From Planctomycetaceae bacterium (GTDB lineage Bacteria; Planctomycetota; Planctomycetia; Pirellulales; Pirellulaceae), in assembly GCA_005778405.1 (NCBI GenBank), contig SXOA01000150.1, forward strand, positions 1-64,000: DNA of 64,000 nucleotides. The letters run 5' to 3'. Under the pieces are notes generated by a model. The model made no database searches. It worked only from the letters and a program-made list of their open reading frames with translations, and was not told the origin of the DNA. A program made the translations under genes and the position numbers. Each line of letters begins with the position of its first letter. Positions within the stretch are counted from its first letter, which is position 1. This document shows, one piece after another, positions 4,941 through 63,232 of this stretch.

Positions 4941-5033
4941 TGGCGAAAGTCGAAATCCGAAATCCAAAATCCGAAACTCGGAATCGAAATGCCCTTTTTC
5001 GGATTTCGTGCTTCGAATTTCGGGTTTCTATTT
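4941..5033. repeat. spacer made of short direct repeats (gaaatcc x3) followed by their inverted complement (ggatttcg... cgaatttcggg); predicted extended hairpin inside the tRNA array
   Basis: Seen directly in the sequence between tRNA-His and tRNA-Trp. There is no convincing cloverleaf. Confidence 0.4.
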
Positions 5034-7731: not shown

Positions 7732-10203
7732 ATGAACGACACACTGCGGAACCTTACCGAAGTCGACCGCGACGCGCAGATATTTCGCGTCGTGGATGAG
7801 GCGCTACAGCGGCGAGCGGGAGGGGAGGAGATTACCGACGACGATCTTTGCCGGGAACATCCCAACCTGCTGCCGGAACTGGCCGCGGAGCTGCGCAAGG
7901 TGCGAGTCATCGCGCGAGCGCGTGAGCAATCCAGACAGCCGGCTGCGGACCGACGCGACCCCGCGAGCGATGAAACGGCTGCTTTCTTACCGATGCGGCC
8001 GCAAGTGCCCCGCCTGTCACGCTCGCTGGATATTCGTTGCCCTCTGTGCCGCGAGCCGCTGGAGATCGCCGCTGATCAGCCGCTGGAGGACATTCCCTGC
8101 CTGTCATGCCACGGCCGGTTCAGCCTGGCCGGTGACGATCCGGGCCTGAAGGATCAACAGCCCGTCACTCGGATCGCCCATTTCGAGTTGCTACAACGGC
8201 TGGGAATGGGGAGCTTCGGCACCGTGTGGAAAGCCCACGATGTGAAACTCGACCGCACGATCGCCCTGAAGATTCCCCGCCGCGGGCATTTGAGCTCCAG
8301 TCAAGTGGAGAAGTTCTTGCATGAAGCCCGCGTCGCCGCGAAGCTGCGGCATCCACACATCGTCAGCGTCCACGAGATTGGCCGCGACGACGACAGCATC
8401 TACATTGTCAGCGACCTCGTGGAAGGGGTCTCGCTGGAAAAATTCAAGGACGCGAAACGGCTGACGCAGCGAGAAGCGGCCCAGTTGCTCGTCACCGTGT
8501 GTGACGCGCTGCACTTCGCCCATCAGGCGGGAATCGTGCATCGTGACCTCAAGCCGGGCAACATCCTGATCGACGCCCAAGGAGTGCCGCACATCACCGA
8601 CTTTGGCCTGGCCAAGCGCGGGAACGAGGAAGTCGAGATCACGATGCAGGGAGAGATCCTGGGGACGCCGGCGTACATGTCGCCGGAACAGGCCCGCGGC
8701 GAGTCGCACCTGGCTGACCGCCGCACCGACGTTTATGCGATGGGAGTCATGTTCTTCGAGCTCCTTACCGATTGTCTTCCCTTCCGCGGCAACGTGCCGG
8801 CCCTCACGCAGCACGCGATCCACACCGAGCCGCCCAGTCCGCGCCGGCTCAATGCGACCATTTCGCGCGATCTGGAAACCATCTGCCTGAAATGCCTGGA
8901 GAAGGATCCCGTGCGCCGTTACGAATCGGCCGATGACCTGGCTGCCGAACTGCGCCGTTTTCTGGCCGGGGACGAAATCCGAGCGCGGCCGATTTCGCGG
9001 AGCGAACGCCTCTGGCGCTGGTGCCGGAAGAACCCACGGATTCCCACGCTCTCCGCGGCGCTGCTCGGCGTCGTGCTGATTGCCTATGCCGGCGCCTGGG
9101 TCTGGTTTGAGGCCCACATCGACCGCACGCGGCAGAGGCTCCAGGAACAGGCCCACGAGAACCTTCAGTTCACAGGTGGGGCGATTACCACAGCCGCCGG
9201 GCACGACTTCGACAAGTATTTTCAGCAGGTTAAGGACGCGGCTCGCGATCCCGTTCTGGCCAAACAACTGCGGGAGATGCAAGTGGTTCAGCAGAAATAT
9301 GCGCCGCTCAACGCGGTCGTCAAAAACGGGCCGCTTCAGGCGGAATTGCTCGACGAAAAGCTCCGGCAGCCGCTCAAGAAGTGGACCGAGAGCTTGCCGC
9401 GGGGGCAGTCAGTGTTCTCCTGGTTTGTCATGCAACCGGACGGGTTGCAGGTCGCGCGATATCCAGAGGTGTCGGGAGGCGAGAATACCATCGGCGAGAA
9501 CTATTCGTGGCGAGCCTATTTTCATGGCGGCCCGGAAGACAAACCGCTCGATTGGCGGGCCATTCCTGGACAGCATCTGACCGGGACCCAATTGTCGCCA
9601 CCCTTCTTTACTCATCACACTTTTGAATGGGTCTTGGTCGTCTCGACCCCAATCCCCGATCCGCAAGCCTCGGACGCCCCGGCACTCGGGGTCCTGGGAC
9701 TCATGCTGAAGCTGGGGTCGTTCGTGGAACTGCCCGGCAACGCGCCTCATGTCTCGCGGACCGAGGATACCGCCGGCGCTGAAAGCCGCTTTGCCGTGCT
9801 GATCGATTCGCGTCCCGCTCACCAGGGGAAAATCCTCCAGCATCCTCGGTACAGCGATCTAGAGAGTGATCAAGCTGCTCGTAGAAAGCTGCTCGACAGC
9901 TCGCTTGAGCCGGCGTTGCGAGTGCAGGGAGACTGGACCTGGCAGGACGACTACCTCGATCCCCTGGAGGAGCAACATTCCGGCGCGGACCCGCAGCAAT
10001 GGCTGGCCAGCCGTTTGCCAGTGAAAATCAGCGGGACCGACAGCGGCCTGGATGTCATCGTTCAGGAAAGCTACGACCAGACGATCAAGCAACCCCTGGC
10101 CGAGCTACGCCGCGGCCTGATTCTCCTGAGCTTGATCACGTTTGGACTCGCCGCGGTCGTGATCGTACCGCTGTGGGGGATCATTCTGCGATTAGTGCGA
10201 TGA
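7732..10203 (+). CDS. serine/threonine protein kinase with a C-terminal TM anchor and a large extracytoplasmic domain (ECF-sigma-associated)
   Basis: Hanks kinase motifs HRDLKPGNILID, DFGLAK and GTPAYMSPE. Hydrophobic segments near residue ~430 and at the C-terminus. Confidence 0.8.
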   Translation: MNDTLRNLTEVDRDAQIFRVVDEALQRRAGGEEITDDDLCREHPNLLPELAAELRKVRVIARAREQSRQPAADRRDPASDETAAFLPMRPQVPRLSRSLDIRCPLCREPLEIAADQPLEDIPCLSCHGRFSLAGDDPGLKDQQPVTRIAHFELLQRLGMGSFGTVWKAHDVKLDRTIALKIPRRGHLSSSQVEKFLHEARVAAKLRHPHIVSVHEIGRDDDSIYIVSDLVEGVSLEKFKDAKRLTQREAAQLLVTVCDALHFAHQAGIVHRDLKPGNILIDAQGVPHITDFGLAKRGNEEVEITMQGEILGTPAYMSPEQARGESHLADRRTDVYAMGVMFFELLTDCLPFRGNVPALTQHAIHTEPPSPRRLNATISRDLETICLKCLEKDPVRRYESADDLAAELRRFLAGDEIRARPISRSERLWRWCRKNPRIPTLSAALLGVVLIAYAGAWVWFEAHIDRTRQRLQEQAHENLQFTGGAITTAAGHDFDKYFQQVKDAARDPVLAKQLREMQVVQQKYAPLNAVVKNGPLQAELLDEKLRQPLKKWTESLPRGQSVFSWFVMQPDGLQVARYPEVSGGENTIGENYSWRAYFHGGPEDKPLDWRAIPGQHLTGTQLSPPFFTHHTFEWVLVVSTPIPDPQASDAPALGVLGLMLKLGSFVELPGNAPHVSRTEDTAGAESRFAVLIDSRPAHQGKILQHPRYSDLESDQAARRKLLDSSLEPALRVQGDWTWQDDYLDPLEEQHSGADPQQWLASRLPVKISGTDSGLDVIVQESYDQTIKQPLAELRRGLILLSLITFGLAAVVIVPLWGIILRLVR

Positions 10204-10453
10204 TGGGCCATGGCTTGAGCGAATGGTTCAGTGAATCGCGCTATCCGACCACGAAAGAATTTCAGCGAACCATTCTTCGCTGTTTGCATCTACCCCTTGC
10301 AGAGCCAAAGATGCTCGCGAAGGAGCCGGCGAGTCCAAGCTCCGCACGCTTGCGCACATGACATGGGGATAGTCCCCGCAAGAGCCTTCTCCAAGGCCCA
10401 GTGTCACGAGTGAAACCGGGATTTTTTTGTGCGCTCAAGACGACAGAGTGTAT

Positions 10454-10525
10454 GACGCTGGAGCCAGACGGCACGGCCGCTGCCTGCAAAGCAGCTCCAA
10501 GTGGGTTCGACTCCCACCGGCGTCT
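10454..10525 (+). tRNA. tRNA-Cys (anticodon GCA)
   Basis: Acceptor gacgctg/cggcgtc, anticodon arm gctgc-CTGCAAA-gcagc, T-arm gtggGTTCGACTcccac. Confidence 0.7.
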
Positions 10526-10630
10526 CTTGCAAGCAAGCGATGTTTGTCGCCAGGCCAGCGGCGCACCGAGCCTCGATTTCGAGTCTGCTCGGCGTGTTCC
10601 GAACATGGGGTCTAACGAAGGCGGCAGACA

Positions 10631-10703
10631 GCGAGGTTAGCTCAGTGGAAAGAGCACCAGGCTACTAACCTGGATGTCGCGGGTTCGACTCCCGTACCAT
10701 CAC
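10631..10703 (+). pseudogene. tRNA-like element / probable pseudo-tRNA: good D, anticodon and T arms, but anticodon ACT and an acceptor stem that cannot close
   Basis: D-arm gctc-agtggaaa-gagc, anticodon arm ccagg-CTACTAA-cctgg, T-arm gcggGTTCGACTcccgt. The 5' acceptor gcgaggt is not complementary to the 3' accatca. Confidence 0.4.
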
Positions 10704-11105
10704 CGCAGGCGTGAAAAACCTGCTCGACCGGGCGCGCAAGCGTCTACCAAGAGGCCCGCGGGAGGCGGGCATTCGCTGGATCAGCTGTCGTCCATTGTGA
10801 CTCGTTCACACGGACGGCAGCAGCACTAGAAACATGCCTTGAAAGGCGCACATCCCGCTTACCACCGCTGCCACTAATTGATTTGTCGGCGCTCACGAGC
10901 GACGCGATTGGTTTCGGCCACTCGCTAACTCGCCAGCCAGGCATTTCAAAGTGACGGCGAAGTCTGCTCAAAGCGCACTTCCGCATTTTTCCGTGTGATT
11001 CGTGAACGTCCCGCCCCCCAACGGCGTCTCTTCGTCTTCAACACAGTTGTTTCATCGCGCGCCAACCGCGAGCCCAGTTGGCAAGATGAAAGGAGCCCAG
11101 CTCCA

Positions 11106-12212: not shown

Positions 12213-12425
12213 CAGCAGTGCCCTGGGATTGAATAGGAAGGCAGTTGGACTGTCGGTCAGGGAGTCGTCACCCAGGTTCTCGAAAGGAGCAATCCTGCCG
12301 CCCTCATGCCGATTTGGCGTGAGGGCGGTTTTTTGATACAAGATGGATGGGCACTTTGTCTTCAGTGCAACTTCCGACGATTCGTTGGGGATGCCCCTAG
12401 ACTCGTTGGCAACCAGCTTTTCTCC

Positions 12426-13331
12426 ATGGATGCAGAACTCTCCCAAGCTGTTGCTGCCATTCGGACGGAGTGGGCTTCCATTCCCACGGTCGGCGTCATC
12501 CTGGGAACGGGCCTCGGCGGCTTGACCAGCGCGATGCACGTGGAAGCGGAGATTCCCTACCATCGCATCCCGTACTTTCCCCGCTCCACCGCCATGGCCC
12601 ACAAGGGAGCCCTTCACTGCGGCGAAATGGCCGGCGTAAAAGTCCTCACCATGGCTGGCCGCTGCCATCTGTATGAAGGCTATTCGGTCGCCGACTTGCG
12701 GCTTCCCATCCGCGTGATGCACACCCTCGGCGTCCGCACGCTCATCATCACCAACGCCGCCGGCGGCTTGAACGCGCGGTTTGAGCCGGGAGACGTGATG
12801 GTGATCGAGGACCATGTGAACTTGATGGGATTTTCCGCGTGCCCGAGCGGGTTGACGGTGGATTTGGCCGGGGCGGCAGGAGACGGAGAGAAGGAGAGAG
12901 GGAGAGACGGGGAGAAGGACAGATTCACTGAATCTTCTCTCTCTGTCTCTCCTTCTCTCTGTCTCTCCATCTCTCCCCAATCCGCCTACGACTCTGCTCT
13001 CGCGGACGCCGCCCTCTCCGCCGCTCGCCACGGCAACTTCCCCTGTCAGCGCGGCGTGTACGTCGGCGTGAAAGGCCCCAACTACGAAACACGGGCTGAA
13101 TATCGGGCATTCCGCCGCTTCGGGGATGTGGTCGGCATGAGTACGATTCCGGAAGTCCTCGCCGCACGGTCCCTCGGAATGCGCGTCCTCGGCCTTTCCA
13201 CCGTCACCAACGTCGCTCGCCCCGATGCCCCGCAAATCGTCACCTCGGACGAAGTCGTGGAAGTCGCCAGCATCGCTCAGCCCAAGCTGCGACAGATCAT
13301 TCTGGGGGTGCTCGGTTTTTTTTCGTGGTGA
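12426..13331 (+). CDS. punA: purine nucleoside phosphorylase (PNP/PunA family) carrying a ~25-aa low-complexity loop insertion
   Basis: Conserved PNP blocks (GVILGTGLGG, HCGEMAGVKVLTMAGRCHLYEG, LIITNAAGGLN, GVKGPNYETRAEYRAFRRFGDVVGMSTIPEV). The start is inferred at the internal Met. Confidence 0.75.
   Translation: MDAELSQAVAAIRTEWASIPTVGVILGTGLGGLTSAMHVEAEIPYHRIPYFPRSTAMAHKGALHCGEMAGVKVLTMAGRCHLYEGYSVADLRLPIRVMHTLGVRTLIITNAAGGLNARFEPGDVMVIEDHVNLMGFSACPSGLTVDLAGAAGDGEKERGRDGEKDRFTESSLSVSPSLCLSISPQSAYDSALADAALSAARHGNFPCQRGVYVGVKGPNYETRAEYRAFRRFGDVVGMSTIPEVLAARSLGMRVLGLSTVTNVARPDAPQIVTSDEVVEVASIAQPKLRQIILGVLGFFSW
12871..12975. repeat. GA-rich run followed by its CT-rich near-complement (imperfect palindrome), in-frame inside the PNP gene
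   Basis: ggagacggagagaaggagagagggagagacgggg ... ctctctgtctctccttctctctgtctctccatctctcc, with a central gattcactgaatc. Confidence 0.5.
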
Positions 13332-15474: not shown

Positions 15475-15559
15475 TTCGGCTTAGACGTTAGCTTAGCCGC
15501 CGCGTCCAAGCGGCGAATCCCCGCGCGGACGCGGGGGCTACGCTCACTTCTATGCTAGA

Positions 15560-21127: not shown

Positions 21128-21973
21128 ATGGCGATTGACGTAATCTGCGCCGCTTGCAAAACCCGCTTTCAGGTGAGCGACAAATTCGCCGGCAAGCAGG
21201 GGCCCTGCCCCAAGTGCAAAGCCATCATCACCGTGCCGTCCAAAAAGGACGAAGTGGTGATTCATGCGCCGGAAGTCTCCGGTCCCAAAGACAGCAAAGG
21301 GATGTTCGTTCTTAAGCCGCTCACCCGCACCGAGGCGCGCCTGTCGCAGTTGAACATCGGGATTATTGTGGGGAGCGTCGTGCTGCTGCTCTTGGTTTCG
21401 CTGGTGCTGCGGATTGCCTATCGCAAAGATTTGCAGATGCCGGCCGCCGCCGCCCAAGGCACGAAGGGAGGGCCCCCGAAAACCAAGGAAGGCACGCCGG
21501 CCGCGACCGACAAGAGTTCCAAAGAGAAAGCTAAGCCAGGCGAGACCGCACCCAAAATGGGCATCACGGTCCCCATTTCTTTGCAAATCATTTTGGCACT
21601 GGGCGCCATCTTGCTCGCCCCGGCAGTTGCCTTTGCCGGTTATACGTTTCTGCGGAACGATGAGCTGGAGCCGTATCGCGGAACGGCCCTTTATATTCGC
21701 CTGCTGATCATCTCCGGGGCCTACCCGATGATGTGGGGCATCTACTGGGCGCTGTTTGGTTATTTCTCGGACAATTTTGAGGGAGGCCCGCCTCTCATGG
21801 CGCTGGCCATGGTCGTGCCCTTGCTGATCCTGGCCGGAGCGTTCGTCGCGCACACGACTTTTGATATCGAGTATGGCACAGCGCTGTTGCACTGTTGCAT
21901 GTATCTGAGCGCCACGGTGTTGCTGCGGCTGATTATCGGATTGCCGCCGCACTGGACGGTTTGGGGCACGTGA
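21128..21973 (+). CDS. membrane protein with an N-terminal MJ0042-type zinc ribbon (CAAC...CPKC) and 4-5 TM helices
   Basis: MAIDVICAACKTRFQV...GPCPKCKAIITVP followed by hydrophobic helices. Confidence 0.45.
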   Translation: MAIDVICAACKTRFQVSDKFAGKQGPCPKCKAIITVPSKKDEVVIHAPEVSGPKDSKGMFVLKPLTRTEARLSQLNIGIIVGSVVLLLLVSLVLRIAYRKDLQMPAAAAQGTKGGPPKTKEGTPAATDKSSKEKAKPGETAPKMGITVPISLQIILALGAILLAPAVAFAGYTFLRNDELEPYRGTALYIRLLIISGAYPMMWGIYWALFGYFSDNFEGGPPLMALAMVVPLLILAGAFVAHTTFDIEYGTALLHCCMYLSATVLLRLIIGLPPHWTVWGT

Positions 21974-23087
21974 CCTGGGTGGCCCATCGTTTTCTGGGCA
22001 CATTGCTCGTCGTCACCCATTCGACAATCCGCCAGTCCAGCCAGCGGCGGTCGGGATCAGCCCCTTTCTTGCTTACAAAGCCCAAATGACCTCCCGTGGG
22101 CACGATAGCCAATCGAGTACTGCTCGAATAATTTGCCGCCTCGAACGGGCGCACGGGGACAATGGGGTCGTCCGCGGCAGCGACCACGATGGTGGGGACG
22201 TCGATTTCCTTGAGGAGCGGCGCGGAACTGGCGCGGCGATAATATTCCTCGGCGGAAGCAAATCCCCCGAGCGGAGCAGTGAACCGCTCGTCAAAGTCGC
22301 GGAGGTGACGGGGCGAAGGATGAAGCGGCGGCGCAATCTCGCGTGACACGCGACCATTGCGGATGACCGCCTCGCGCAAAAGATTGCGCAGGAATTTGCG
22401 GTTGTACCAAATGTTCAAGCCAGTCTCCATGTTTTGGGCGCAGGCAATCAGGTCAATGGGCGGGGCCACGGCCATCGCCCCTGCCAGATTGGCCGGTCGC
22501 TGCCGGCCGAGTTCTCCGAGGAGCTTGAGGACCAGATTGGCCCCCATCGAGAAGCCGACCAGAAACACGGGAGAGTCGGGGCACGATTCGATTACGTGGG
22601 CCAGGGCAACTCCCACGTCTTCGCTGCGCCCCGCATGCACCGGCAACTTTGCCAGCTCCTTGCCCGCGCCGCAGCCGCGCAGGTCCATGCGAAAAACCCG
22701 TACGCCCTTGGCCACCAGCTTCGCCGCTGTCCGCTGCATGTAGGTGGACTGATGGCAGCCGCCGAGGCCGTGGACGAGCAAAGCGACACGGTCGCCGGCT
22801 TGCCAGGCCGAGGGAACAGGAGACAGGGGACAGGGGACAGTCAAACGCTGCCAGTTCGCTGTTTCCTGTCTCTTGTGCCCTGTCTCCTGTTCTCCGTTTC
22901 CTGTCCCCTGTCCCCTGCTTCCTCCTCCCGGCACATCATCGTGCAGCACCAGCCGATCGCCATCCGGCAGCGGCACCAAGTGCTGCTTGCCATTGGCGGC
23001 CCATTTCAAGCCGGGAAGATAGCAGCCCAAAATAGTTTGGGCGTGACCGCCACGAACTAACGGATGCGGGATGAAGGGTGGGAACAT
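21933..23087 (-). CDS. alpha/beta-fold hydrolase (YheT-like) carrying a low-complexity loop insertion
   Basis: HGLGG oxyanion region, GFSMGAN nucleophile elbow, and the later catalytic Asp/His context. Confidence 0.65.
   Translation of the reverse strand: MFPPFIPHPLVRGGHAQTILGCYLPGLKWAANGKQHLVPLPDGDRLVLHDDVPGGGSRGQGTGNGEQETGHKRQETANWQRLTVPCPLSPVPSAWQAGDRVALLVHGLGGCHQSTYMQRTAAKLVAKGVRVFRMDLRGCGAGKELAKLPVHAGRSEDVGVALAHVIESCPDSPVFLVGFSMGANLVLKLLGELGRQRPANLAGAMAVAPPIDLIACAQNMETGLNIWYNRKFLRNLLREAVIRNGRVSREIAPPLHPSPRHLRDFDERFTAPLGGFASAEEYYRRASSAPLLKEIDVPTIVVAAADDPIVPVRPFEAANYSSSTRLAIVPTGGHLGFVSKKGADPDRRWLDWRIVEWVTTSNVPRKRWATQVTCPKPSSAAAIR
22805..22925. repeat. GA-rich / CT-rich inverted-repeat low-complexity element in-frame inside the hydrolase gene
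   Basis: aacaggagacaggggacaggggacag ... gccctgtctcctgtt ... cctgtcccctgtcccctg. The 17-mer caggggacaggggacag recurs as its reverse complement. Confidence 0.5.
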
Positions 23088-28946: not shown

Positions 28947-30506
28947 TCAAATCTTCAGCCCGAAATGAGTCCTCAATCGAATGACGCAAACATCGACCGT
29001 AGAATCGATGTTGCCTTCCGCGAGTTTGCCTTCCTCTTGAAGCATCCTTGCCAGCCCTTCCAGCATCAGCCGGTCAAGTTGCGGGTCATAGAGCAGCAAC
29101 AAGCGCCGTTCGACAAGATCGCCGAGCGTCGTAACCCATTCTTCGCGAATGATCCGGCGAACCGCCTCTCCCCATCTTGCCGCCTCTCCGCCTCCCTGTC
29201 TCTCCTTCTCCAGCACGCCCCCCGGAATGACCCGCGCCCGCGAGTTACGCACATCCGCGGCACTCTCGCCAAGTCGCACCAGCACGGCCGTCGCAGTCTC
29301 CTCCGCCAGCGAACGACAGGTCGTCAGCTTGCCGCCGACGAGCGAGACGAGGGGAATCGGGGACGCTTCGTTCCACACAAGCTGATGCCGCCGCGTGATG
29401 GCGGCTGTGGATTTGGCATCGACGTGCGGCAGCGGACGGACGCCGCTGTAGTGCCAGGCGATGTCGGCGCGGGTGACGCCAGCCGCGGGGAAAATGTCGC
29501 CGACCTCGTCCAGGAGATAATCCAGCTCTTCGGCGGTTGCCACTGCCGTTGCCGGATCGCCGCTGAAGGACAAATCGGTGGTGCCGACAAGCGTCCCTTC
29601 GGCCAGCGGCAACAAAAACACCGGCCGCCCATCCGCCGCTTCGGTGTAGATGCCGCTAGCACTGAGCATTTCTCTGAGTTGCGGATGCCAGGTGAAGAAG
29701 TGGCTCCCTTTGGTTCCGCCCATCAGGCGGCGCGAAGAGACAGGGAGCTTTTGCAGCGTCTCATCCACCCAGGCCCCGGTGGCATTGATGATGGCGGAGG
29801 GCTGAAAGGAGAGGACCGGCTGCCCGTTCTCGCTTGTTGGCCCAACGTGAACGATGTCATTTTCCAGCCTCGCCCGGTGATAGGTCAGCACTCGCAATGT
29901 GCAGCCGTTCTCGTCGGCGGCTTTCTGCGCATCTCGGAGCAAGGCGACGACGAACCGTTCGGGAAAAGGAATCTGCGCATCGGAATAGGCGGCCAGCCAG
30001 GCGGCAGCACCCGCATCGACAGGGGGAACGCCGTCTTCACCAAGCTTGTGAGTGCTGCGGAGCGGCAGCGTCTTGTCCTGGGCGTAGGTGTCGTACATCC
30101 ACAGACCCGTCCGAACTAAGGCCAGTCCTCTTGATTCCGGCTTACCACCTCCGCCTATCCCGAGAAACTTCGTTGCCGACTGCCACAGCCCGCCAAGCTG
30201 ATTCTTCACTGGGATAAACAGTCGCAGCGGGCGAACGAAGTCCGGCGCGAGCTGCAACAAGCGAGTGCGCTCGGCCAATGATTCCTTGACCAGGCTGAAC
30301 TCGCCATACTCCAGATACCGCAGCCCGCCATGAATGAGCCGCGAGGAATAGGCAGTCGCCCCACTCGCCAAATCCGCCTGGTCCACCAGCAGCACGCTGT
30401 AGCCGTTAAGAGTCAATTCCCTCGCCGCCGCCGCCCCGTTGATGCCGCCGCCGAGGATGAGAATGGGGCGGTCGAGAGAGAAGGGGGCGTCTGGCATGAA
30501 AACCAT
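28947..30506 (-). CDS. glpD: FAD-dependent glycerol-3-phosphate dehydrogenase
   Basis: FAD-binding GGGINGAAAARELTLNGYSVLLVD plus GlpD-family blocks. Confidence 0.8.
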   Translation of the reverse strand: MVFMPDAPFSLDRPILILGGGINGAAAARELTLNGYSVLLVDQADLASGATAYSSRLIHGGLRYLEYGEFSLVKESLAERTRLLQLAPDFVRPLRLFIPVKNQLGGLWQSATKFLGIGGGGKPESRGLALVRTGLWMYDTYAQDKTLPLRSTHKLGEDGVPPVDAGAAAWLAAYSDAQIPFPERFVVALLRDAQKAADENGCTLRVLTYHRARLENDIVHVGPTSENGQPVLSFQPSAIINATGAWVDETLQKLPVSSRRLMGGTKGSHFFTWHPQLREMLSASGIYTEAADGRPVFLLPLAEGTLVGTTDLSFSGDPATAVATAEELDYLLDEVGDIFPAAGVTRADIAWHYSGVRPLPHVDAKSTAAITRRHQLVWNEASPIPLVSLVGGKLTTCRSLAEETATAVLVRLGESAADVRNSRARVIPGGVLEKERQGGGEAARWGEAVRRIIREEWVTTLGDLVERRLLLLYDPQLDRLMLEGLARMLQEEGKLAEGNIDSTVDVCVIRLRTHFGLKI

Positions 30507-31142: not shown

Positions 31143-32498
31143 TCAGGGCCGCGCGGCCGGCAGTGATTCGTCTATTGGCGACCTTCCCCAAAAGAGCAGG
31201 GCCACGCAGCCGACCAGCGGGACCATGCCGGCGAAGAACAGGGCTGAGCCATAGCTGCCGGTCGCTTTGACGGTGTTCCCAACCCATTCCTGCATATAGG
31301 ACGACGCAATCCAGGTGATGCAGCCGAGTGCGCCGGTTACCAGGCCCTGATGTTTTTTGGAAATCTCCTGCGTGAGGGAATAGAACGGAGGAAAGAGCCC
31401 CAGCGACCCGAATCCAATCACGAGAAAGCTGCCGAGGAGCAGCCAGCCCTTCGGCAGTGAGCCGGCAAACATGCTCGCCATCGTCAGTAAGGCGCAAACC
31501 ACGAACGCCAGGCTTCGAGCAGCGTGTGGCGACCAGCCGCGCTTTTGCGCCAGGTGTTTGGAAAGCATGCCAGCGGCAATGCAGCCGACGTCGGCCACCA
31601 GGAAGTACCCCGCCCGAAACCAAGGAATGAAATCTTCCTCATAGCCCCGTCGATCGAGAATGAGCGGCATCCAGGCACGGAAGAATTGCCAGGTCAGGTT
31701 AATCGGGATAACAATGGCCAGCAGCGCCAGGAAGCGGCGAATCGTCGCCATGCCGACCGCGGAATTCCAGTGGATGCGGGAAATCTGATCTGCGGTGCTC
31801 GTCTCCAGCCGCGAAGGCTGTTCCGGCTCGCGCTGCAAGTCTTTGTCGCGGATGAGCAGGAGCCACGGAATGATCCAAAGCATCCCGATGAACCCAATGG
31901 CCTGAAAGGCGAACCGCCAACTGCCGGTTTGCGACGATACGACAAAGTAGATGACAATGGGCGTGAGTACGGCGCCGACGGAAGCGCCACTTTGCAGCAG
32001 GCCATTGCCAAAAGTCCTGTCGCGGGCCGAGAGAATCCGCTGGGTGGTGATCAGGGCGCAGGGCCAGTGCCCCGCTTCGAAGAAGCCGAGCACGATACGG
32101 CAGGTGTAGAGCCCCAGGAAAGCCGTGCGCGAGTTGACGTATTTCGCCTGCGTGGCCAGCTCCGGATCGAGCAGCCAAGGGAAGTACCTGACCAGACTCT
32201 CGCCGAGGGAGTCTCCATAGGCAGTCGCAATGCCAGCGGACGACCATCCGATGAGCACCGCTGGATATAGCCAGCGAATGCTAACGCGGTCGGCTACCAT
32301 CCCAAGGACGATCGCTCCGAGGGCGAAGGCGAGGCCGAACCCCTTTTCCATCTGGCCGTAGTGCGTCTCGTCCAGGTCCAATTCGGTCAGAATGGGTTTA
32401 ATGGATTCGGCCAGCGTCTGCCGGTCCATGTACATCATCATCGTGGCCAGGAAGAGGAGGCCACAGATGGTCCATTTCCAGGCGGGGGGACGGTTCAT
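31143..32498 (-). CDS. MFS transporter
   Basis: 12 predicted TM helices and an MFS signature near the TM2-3 loop. The ORF's upstream extension is created by the REP sequence, so the start is taken at the internal Met. Confidence 0.7.
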   Translation of the reverse strand: MNRPPAWKWTICGLLFLATMMMYMDRQTLAESIKPILTELDLDETHYGQMEKGFGLAFALGAIVLGMVADRVSIRWLYPAVLIGWSSAGIATAYGDSLGESLVRYFPWLLDPELATQAKYVNSRTAFLGLYTCRIVLGFFEAGHWPCALITTQRILSARDRTFGNGLLQSGASVGAVLTPIVIYFVVSSQTGSWRFAFQAIGFIGMLWIIPWLLLIRDKDLQREPEQPSRLETSTADQISRIHWNSAVGMATIRRFLALLAIVIPINLTWQFFRAWMPLILDRRGYEEDFIPWFRAGYFLVADVGCIAAGMLSKHLAQKRGWSPHAARSLAFVVCALLTMASMFAGSLPKGWLLLGSFLVIGFGSLGLFPPFYSLTQEISKKHQGLVTGALGCITWIASSYMQEWVGNTVKATGSYGSALFFAGMVPLVGCVALLFWGRSPIDESLPAARP

Positions 32499-32500
32499 TG

Positions 32501-32546
32501 TCGTCTTTCGCTCCGCGAAAGACATGCCTTTCGCGAAGCGAAAGGC
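32501..32546. repeat. REP-like double hairpin (copy A: ctttcgc-tcc-gcgaaag ... ctttcgc-gaa-gcgaaag)
   Basis: Two adjacent 7-bp-stem palindromes. The same unit recurs at 33241 and 33812. Confidence 0.6.
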
Positions 32547-32576
32547 AACAATGGAGGGCGACAGGCAACCATCACT

Positions 32577-63143: not shown

Positions 63144-63232
63144 GAAATGTCGAAATTCGAATGACGTATGGCGAATGAGGTCGACCTTCTTACCCTAGAA
63201 TTCGTCATTTAGAATTCGAATTTCGACATTTT
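63144..63232. repeat. ~23-bp inverted repeat (gaaatgtcgaaattcgaatgacg / cgtcatttagaattcgaatttcgacattt) with a ~37-nt spacer, immediately upstream of the next gene's start
   Basis: Near-perfect inverted repeat seen in the sequence. It also contains internal ttcgaa palindromes. Confidence 0.5.

Follow-up and report, generated by a model that had tools for sequence, protein, structure and literature searches.

The 64,000-nucleotide (nt) stretch of contig SXOA01000150.1 analysed here (the window) encodes a YheT-type alpha/beta hydrolase on its minus strand (21933..23087, an open reading frame (ORF) of 384 amino acids) whose coding sequence contains an additional hairpin-forming segment made up of 7-nt repeats. 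A second gene with an in-frame hairpin, a paralogue of the purine-nucleoside-phosphorylase (PNP) family, lies on the plus strand at 12426..13331. The insert in the hydrolase gene is a hairpin of facing heptamer arrays, placed in frame and tolerated in a loop predicted to be disordered, and its class of repeats recurs at other loci and turns over fast.

The hydrolase matched the Pfam models Abhydrolase_1, Hydrolase_4 and Abhydrolase_6 above cutoff, and its best NCBIfam match was the YheT-type model PRK10985 at 140.8 bits, under the 267-bit equivalog cutoff. Its relatives, whose sequences and loci are referred to below by labels (L001, L002 and so on), are annotated as Pirellulaceae YheT family hydrolases and the host organism is therefore a member of the Pirellulaceae (Planctomycetota). 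The residues Ser180, Asp307 and His334 were invariant across the orthologue alignment and, judged from its sequence, the gene is intact despite the insert, with the catalytic Ser, Asp and His all kept.

Structure of the insert in the hydrolase gene

Alignment of the DNA to an empty relative (L002) and a filled one (L001), together with the protein alignment, placed the inserted segment at 22806..22913 on the minus strand, with borders uncertain by a few bases. Relative to orthologues that do not have it, the insert amounts to 108 nt or 36 codons, and its translation is roughly RGQGTGNGEQETGHKRQETANWQRLTVPCPLSPVPSA. The short arm (22811..22840), delimited by Tandem Repeats Finder and by the inverted-repeat pairs I1-I9, is an array of period 7 that reads (AGGGGAC) x 4.3 on the plus strand and includes about four copies of ACAGGGG; on the coding strand it is pyrimidine-rich, (CTGTCCC)n, and encodes VPCPLSPVPS. 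The long arm (22859..22917) consists of about eight degenerate heptamers that are purine-rich on the coding strand, among them CAGGGGA, CAGGAAA, CGGAGAA and CAGGAGA, and that read (CCTGTCC)n on the plus strand. Tandem Repeats Finder reported 7.6 copies of period 7 for this arm (22865-22917), and the array is more degenerate than that of the short arm. The two arms are 18 nt apart, and the spacer between them (22841..22858) forms the loop of the hairpin, as read from the sequence and from the folds.

A preliminary description of this DNA had reported two units in the insert that reappear downstream as their reverse complements, and both were confirmed. AACAGGAGACAGGG lies at 22815-22828 on the plus strand with its reverse complement at 22878-22891, and CAGGGGACAGGGGACAG lies at 22824-22840 on the same strand with its reverse complement at 22901-22917. 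The units were matched 7 and 4 times, respectively, against 0.23 and 0.36 expected, no shuffle equalled these counts, and every match of either unit within the window falls inside the element. The same description had argued that the arrangement is not a simple hairpin, each unit being inverted in place and in the same order, and this was wrong. Since both arms are tandem arrays, the order of the exact words is kept and many registers nevertheless pair; several were recovered, including arms of 34 nt with 82% and of 27 nt with 89% complementarity. The element folded as one long hairpin both as coding-strand RNA (-74.8 kcal/mol, z score -5.5) and as DNA (-34.1 kcal/mol, z score -5.1), and none of 200 shuffles folded as well in either case.

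Searches with Rfam returned just sub-threshold matches to generic eukaryotic microRNA hairpin models (no more than 35 bits, where the cutoffs are 47-168), which indicate a hairpin and nothing further, and a known RNA family was rejected. Promoter and terminator scans gave no signal. Runs of three or more G number three on each strand of the element, as read from its sequence, and a canonical quadruplex is not expected with fewer than four such runs per strand. The element is neither a protein module nor a known RNA.

In an AlphaFold2 model based on the orthologue alignment, residues 57-90 of the hydrolase had predicted local distance difference test (pLDDT) scores below 50 and were without secondary structure, in a stretch between the beta strands 45-51 and 101-106. 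The 36 added residues are therefore predicted to be a disordered loop that connects two beta strands and lies apart from the catalytic Ser, Asp and His. Five of the six reading frames were open across the hydrolase element, and likewise across the PNP element described below, with stops arising solely from the spacer. Open frames are supportive and were rejected as proof of tolerance, as 10.8% of background 110-nt windows were equally open. Survival of the segment in the gene is best attributed to a length that is a multiple of three, to arms that are almost free of stops in any frame, and to a disordered loop away from the catalytic residues.

Presence and absence of the insert among hydrolase orthologues

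Orthologues of 343-362 amino acids that were 68-81% identical to the hydrolase are without the insert, and run from LVLHDD-P-x(3-9)-W directly into the strand that precedes HGLGG. The corresponding gap in the DNA alignment to L002 is 108 nt, which bears out the extra loop that had been proposed between the LVLHDD and HGLGG motifs and sets its length at 36 codons beyond the nearest orthologues. The loop is not universal, the closest orthologues being those that do not have it, and an in-frame insertion located in the loop is supported.

Palindromes and repeats trouble assemblers and the source is a metagenome-assembled genome, which speaks for a chimeric palindrome created by sequencing, amplification or assembly. 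The insert was present and identical base for base in L001, an independent assembly (GCA_005801925.1) with a 99%-identical protein, which rules out an assembly artefact; the reading frame is also kept, related inserts occurred in many assemblies from different projects, and we give this explanation hardly any weight. Comparison of the two assemblies likewise shows no apparent change in unit number at that time scale.

More distant orthologues carried other sequences in the same loop. An orthologue of 57% identity (L006) had the pyrimidine arm alone of the same heptamer, encoding SPVSCSLSPVS. Two orthologues of about 55% identity (L089 509-721 and L090 1633-1833) had other, longer inserts with small local palindromes or a stem, in which a paired change was seen between the two relatives (CCGGGACCA/TGGTCCCGG against CCGGAACC/GGTTCCGG). 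An overall hairpin in these two loops was rejected, as the whole fold was no better than that of shuffles. To go by these relatives, the hydrolase loop is a recurrent site of repeat-like sequence.

A second hairpin in a phosphorylase gene

The ORF of the PNP paralogue opens at 12306, and the start methionine of its orthologues corresponds to 12426. The protein matched NCBIfam PRK08202 at 286.7 bits in two stretches that are divided by an insert. At 12875..12978 on the plus strand, a scan for purine and pyrimidine runs identified the one other purine-arm/pyrimidine-arm pair of the window, in which a spacer of 8 nt separates a GA-rich arm (12875-12923) from a CT-rich one (12932-12978). This GA/CT hairpin is in frame, encodes GDGEKERGRDGEKDRFTESSLSVSPSLCLSISP and folded as RNA with -79.1 kcal/mol (z score -7.0). 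AlphaFold2 gave pLDDT scores below 50 for residues 155-181 of the 301-residue PNP protein.

The existence of a second gene with a similar insert had been noted in the preliminary description and is confirmed, and the two instances are of the same purine-arm/pyrimidine-arm kind. Similarity of sequence between them was marginal, with a local alignment score of 34 against 23.4 +/- 4.1 for arm-wise dinucleotide shuffles, a score that 18 of 1000 shuffles equalled. A candidate third copy at 29162-29211 was rejected because it belongs to the normal coding sequence of a GlpD-like gene and aligns with E. coli GlpD with no insertion. This segment is CT-rich (GA-rich on the coding strand) and has an exact 15-nt word in common with an arm of the PNP hairpin.

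Hairpin turnover at the phosphorylase loop

Protein alignment of PNP orthologues that were 70-84% identical revealed a single loop that differs completely between close relatives. In the DNA of seven PNP relatives a strong hairpin was present at this loop in each, and four kinds were distinguished. GA/CT arms were found in the window, L081 and L083, while (GGGGTCA)n facing (TGACCCC)n was found in L084 and L037. In L085 an array of (GGGGACA)n faced one of (TGTCCCC)n, and this unit is also that of the hydrolase element. The fourth kind was a GTAG-tagged REP doublet with perfect 27-nt arms, GGTGGGGTAGGCTTCCAGCCTGCCCA...TGGGCAGGCTGGAAGCCTACCCCACC, located at L086 10444-10526, L087 2913-2995 and, in part, L061 528-590. 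The GTAG tag belongs to the REP superfamily (PMC3733652). This doublet (GGGGTAGGCTTCCAGCCTGCC core) is in frame in the PNP loop, where it encodes GVGFQPA...GRLEAYPT, and further copies with paired changes in their arms were located in other Pirellulales loci (L010 3655-3716 and L040 4457-4542).

The flanks of the PNP loop were 79-87% identical and the loop itself could not be aligned between hairpin types. The types did not track the phylogeny of the flanks, and nearest neighbours by flank were the window (GA) with L037 (GGGGTCA), L081 (GA) with L086 (REP) and L083 (GA) with L084 (GGGGTCA), the last two having their gene order in common. Within the GA/CT type, conservation was 73-92% in the arms, 53-60% in the spacer and about 82% in the flanks. 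Covariation between the arms of this type amounted to two compensatory pairs in three sequences and was rejected as evidence, the pairs being too few.

Over 98 nt, the hydrolase element aligned with the PNP element of L085, which is from another species and an unrelated gene, with a score of 66 against 23.9 +/- 4.3 that none of 1000 shuffles equalled, although this null destroys the heptamer periodicity and the score partly reflects the common repeat unit. The two elements are also alike in the order of their variant units and in a CCCTCGGYC end.

A conserved loop of 23 residues, GxNPLIGxNDDRLGPRFPDMSxP, is typical of canonical PNPs, which have no hairpin there. This loop is kept in the 276-residue PNP paralogue that adjoins the hairpin-carrying gene in sister genomes, and in PNPs of 48% identity. 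The hairpin-carrying group (window 12426-13331; L081, L083, L084 and L086 around 9100-10900) is without the canonical loop and has kept the other conserved PNP motifs, and the paralogue may therefore have an altered activity. Distant non-canonical paralogues had arbitrary sequence and no hairpin at the loop. With the canonical loop lost and arbitrary sequence in distant members, the site looks released from constraint.

All eight of the close PNP paralogues for which DNA was compared had a strong hairpin at the same loop (z score -2.5 to -9.2) despite unrelated sequences, which would fit a hairpin kept in the mRNA or DNA, for instance to pause translation, to be processed or to bind a regulator, or an extra loop that is adaptive for the enzyme. 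The greater conservation of the GA/CT arms than of their spacer and the identity of the hydrolase insert in two assemblies of the species could be taken in the same way. A functional hairpin or peptide is less likely because the closest hydrolase orthologues are without the insert. Sense RNA was more stable than antisense in five of the eight elements, with L085 strongly the reverse, and this lack of a consistent bias therefore gives no sign of a function at the RNA level. The failure to place the hydrolase element in a known RNA family, the missing promoter and terminator signals, the low complexity and predicted disorder of the peptide and the lack of a hairpin in the distant non-canonical PNP paralogues also argue against a function, which we regard as quite unlikely. 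Selection at the coding level did leave a possible sign in L084. A (TGACCCC)n array puts TGA in frame at every third unit, and the unit of L084 that would do so reads TGT, as read from the sequence.

Heptamer arrays and other palindromes outside the two genes

The heptamers of the hydrolase element recurred at other loci of sister genomes. Directly upstream of where the canonical PNP paralogue starts, pure arrays were located at orthologous positions, (TGACCCC)9 at L083 9033-9104 and (TGTCCCC)5 at L084 9067-9115, and a single base distinguishes the units of these two syntenic loci. The arrays are possibly a variable repeat of the 5' leader. Switches between GGGGTCA and GGGGACA units were spread through both arms of hairpins and through arrays at orthologous sites. 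Comparable G-rich heptamer repeats are the STRR heptamers of cyanobacteria.

Hairpins in which a heptamer array faces its complement were also intergenic, both in the window and in sister loci. One at 4944-5022 of the window has (CGAAATC)n facing (GATTTCG)n and occupies the spacer that separates two sequences resembling tRNA genes. Among viral contigs of IMG/VR, (GGGGACA)3 was present in 13, once as an inverted pair, and a scan of the viral contigs for the paired-array pattern gave no match. Some of the viral arrays mix GA-type, GGGGTCA and GGGGACA units, which links both instances of the window as variants of one repeat class.

A purine-rich heptamer-like array of GGAGTCG/GGGGTCA units with no facing arm was present at L003 160-235, in a 299-residue zinc-ribbon-like ORF where it encodes EVRGQESGEWSQESGLGGQGS. 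Three more intergenic palindromes of the window, with arms of 18-26 nt, are located at 15482-15552, 32496-32553 and 63145-63231. The second of these (CTTTCGCTCCGCGAAAG core) is similar to L007 9887-9938, and this likeness suggests a family of REP-like elements common to Pirellulales. Another dispersed hairpin family is represented by the intergenic palindrome GGGGTCGGGAGGGGTTTTCGCG / CGCGAAAACTCCTCCCGACCCC, which occurs at several sites per locus in sister genomes (L081 6532-6574 and 15236-15312; L083 5300-5378 and 9949-9991; L086 6435-6514).

Comparison with known repeat elements

Rickettsia palindromic elements (RPEs; Ogata et al. 2000) are palindromes of about 100-150 bp that lie in frame inside unrelated metabolic genes, add a fold-compatible peptide segment, and are present in some orthologues and absent from others (summarised in PMC10969869, PMC3733652). 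They form multi-copy families with a conserved sequence and encoded peptide in small, AT-rich genomes (PMC10969869, PMC3733652). The hydrolase insert is like an RPE in its length of 108 nt, its hairpin (z score -5.1 to -5.5), its reading frame and its absence from the orthologues of 68-81% identity. It differs in that its arms are low-complexity heptamer arrays, its host is one of the Pirellulaceae, and a conserved peptide family was not found in protein searches. As for the multi-copy feature of RPEs, one copy of each type was seen within the 64 kb, and a related copy was present in another gene of another species.

REP doublets (REPINs) consist of two inverted repeats and a more freely evolving spacer that form a hairpin with compensatory changes in the arms (PMC3116915, PMC3733652), and intragenic GTAG/CGTC REPs occasionally lie in frame and encode 20-30 residues (PMC3733652, PMC3116915). 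The hydrolase element is without a GTAG/CTAC tag and its arms are tandem heptamers rather than a unique palindrome of 20-40 nt, so that strictly it does not count as a REPIN; the tag is found solely in the different PNP-loop element of L086, L087 and L061.

G-rich heptamers are also known as simple sequence repeats, with the unit GGGAATC in Xanthomonas and the unit GGGGA(C/T)T in Nostoc, and in Xanthomonas there are 70-75 cases of two heptamer arrays that face each other as an inverted repeat (PMC4692102). These heptamers vary in unit number, occur at many loci, are mostly intergenic and turn up less than expected within coding DNA, in a study outside of which Planctomycetota fell (PMC4692102). 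The hydrolase element resembles them in its 7-nt tandem units that open with a G run, at 4.3 and 7.6 copies and with pure arrays of 5-9 copies in sister genomes, and it resembles the Xanthomonas cases in two opposite-strand arrays placed close together. It differs in that the pair is in frame in an enzyme gene and in that the four G runs of a quadruplex-capable sequence are not present. The element works like RPEs and intragenic REPs and is built like the inverted heptamer pairs of Xanthomonas. No description of such in-gene heptamer hairpins for this phylum was found in the literature searched.

Origin of the hydrolase insert

We favour the reading that the segment is a copy of a lineage-typical class of hairpin repeat, a GGGGACA heptamer array facing its own reverse complement, that sits in frame in the DNA of a surface loop as a selfish or neutral feature of the DNA and is filtered by what the loop tolerates, and we put this at around an even chance. 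Between a mobile family and a recurrent local repeat process, spread by dispersal is the preferred inference because another species has this unit, unit order and end in a gene that is unrelated, because hairpins of unrelated types, a dispersed REP doublet among them, occupy one PNP loop, and because the types ignore phylogeny. The hairpin would be copied to new sites by some mechanism working on hairpins in single-stranded DNA, of the sort proposed for REP doublets and their tyrosine transposases. Replication slippage would then let unit number and unit sequence drift, and copying from arm to arm would maintain complementarity. Loops that tolerate insertion would be hit, or their inserts kept, repeatedly, and this would explain why one hydrolase loop and one phosphorylase-paralogue loop carry such inserts in many lineages.

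Several observations weigh against dispersal. The preliminary description had suggested a family of small repeat elements, and a second copy of either element type was not found within the window; the idea gains from the match to the PNP hairpin of L085 and from the heptamers at other loci of sister genomes. The two window instances are marginal in their similarity and, to go by their alignment, barely alike beyond the composition of their arms (p ~0.02). Clear terminal inverted repeats or a target-site duplication were not found beyond one 5-nt near-repeat, and the right end of the insert is partly complementary to the host flank. No transposase was identified, the ORFs of the window not having been screened for the REP-associated type. 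Nothing was found when an idealised insert peptide was compared with 5.8 billion proteins, and the actual 42-residue insert peptide gave one match among 1.84 billion representatives, an uninformative 90-residue sequence of similar heptamer-coded repeats. Finally, the loops of the insert-free orthologues are short, rich in purines and contain words like GGACAG (L088 GGTGGACAGGGAGCGGAAGAAAGCAGC, L003 GGACAGTCAGACG, L002 GAACGACGAGGCAGAG), and an ancestral hydrolase loop that was already GA-rich fits a local origin.

A purely local origin is a serious rival and we consider it possible. A purine-rich stretch of the loop would have been expanded by slippage into a heptamer array, a fold-back or template switch during replication would have copied the array in inverted orientation to give the second arm, and correction from arm to arm would have followed. 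Besides the GA-rich loops of the insert-free orthologues and the single copy in the window, the plain tandem arrays of the same heptamers elsewhere in the clade and the unit switches between GGGGTCA and GGGGACA through both arms and orthologous arrays are in keeping with such a process. The spacer word TGGCAG near-duplicates TGGCAA of the downstream junction (22800-22805), 48 nt away, and the two bracket exactly 48 nt that comprise part of the spacer and the short arm, although a 5-nt repeat within 50 nt arises by chance about 5% of the time. A local origin leaves unexplained why another species has this heptamer in an unrelated gene, with variant units ordered similarly and an end that resembles CCCTCGGYC, and why hairpins of unrelated types, a dispersed REP doublet among them, occur at one PNP loop of close relatives whose flanks are 82-87% identical.

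The different types at the PNP loop would also be compatible with a further reading, which we find rather doubtful. Some loop-coding sites of Pirellulaceae may be landing pads where unrelated hairpins (heptamer-array, GA/CT, REP doublet) replace one another, or the cell may require some hairpin there whatever its sequence. Landing pads would imply some mechanism of integration or recombination directed at a hairpin that is already present in single-stranded DNA, and in either case hairpins in coding regions would be a managed feature rather than debris.

Implications for planctomycete genomes

As a dispersed hairpin repeat, the hydrolase insert would extend the concept of selfish palindromes inside genes from Rickettsia and REP-rich proteobacteria to free-living Planctomycetota, and to a different building block, inverted pairs of G-rich heptamer arrays. 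For annotation it serves as a warning that repeat DNA, translated by the ribosome, can lie behind unusual loops of low complexity in planctomycete enzymes. The turnover of hairpins at fixed loop sites is of more interest than the hydrolase insert itself. With four hairpin types in species whose flanks are 82-87% identical, the phosphorylase loop is a natural test bed for the creation of hairpins, their exchange and the upkeep of their complementarity, and also for the way in which proteins gain disordered loops from DNA of a non-coding-like kind.

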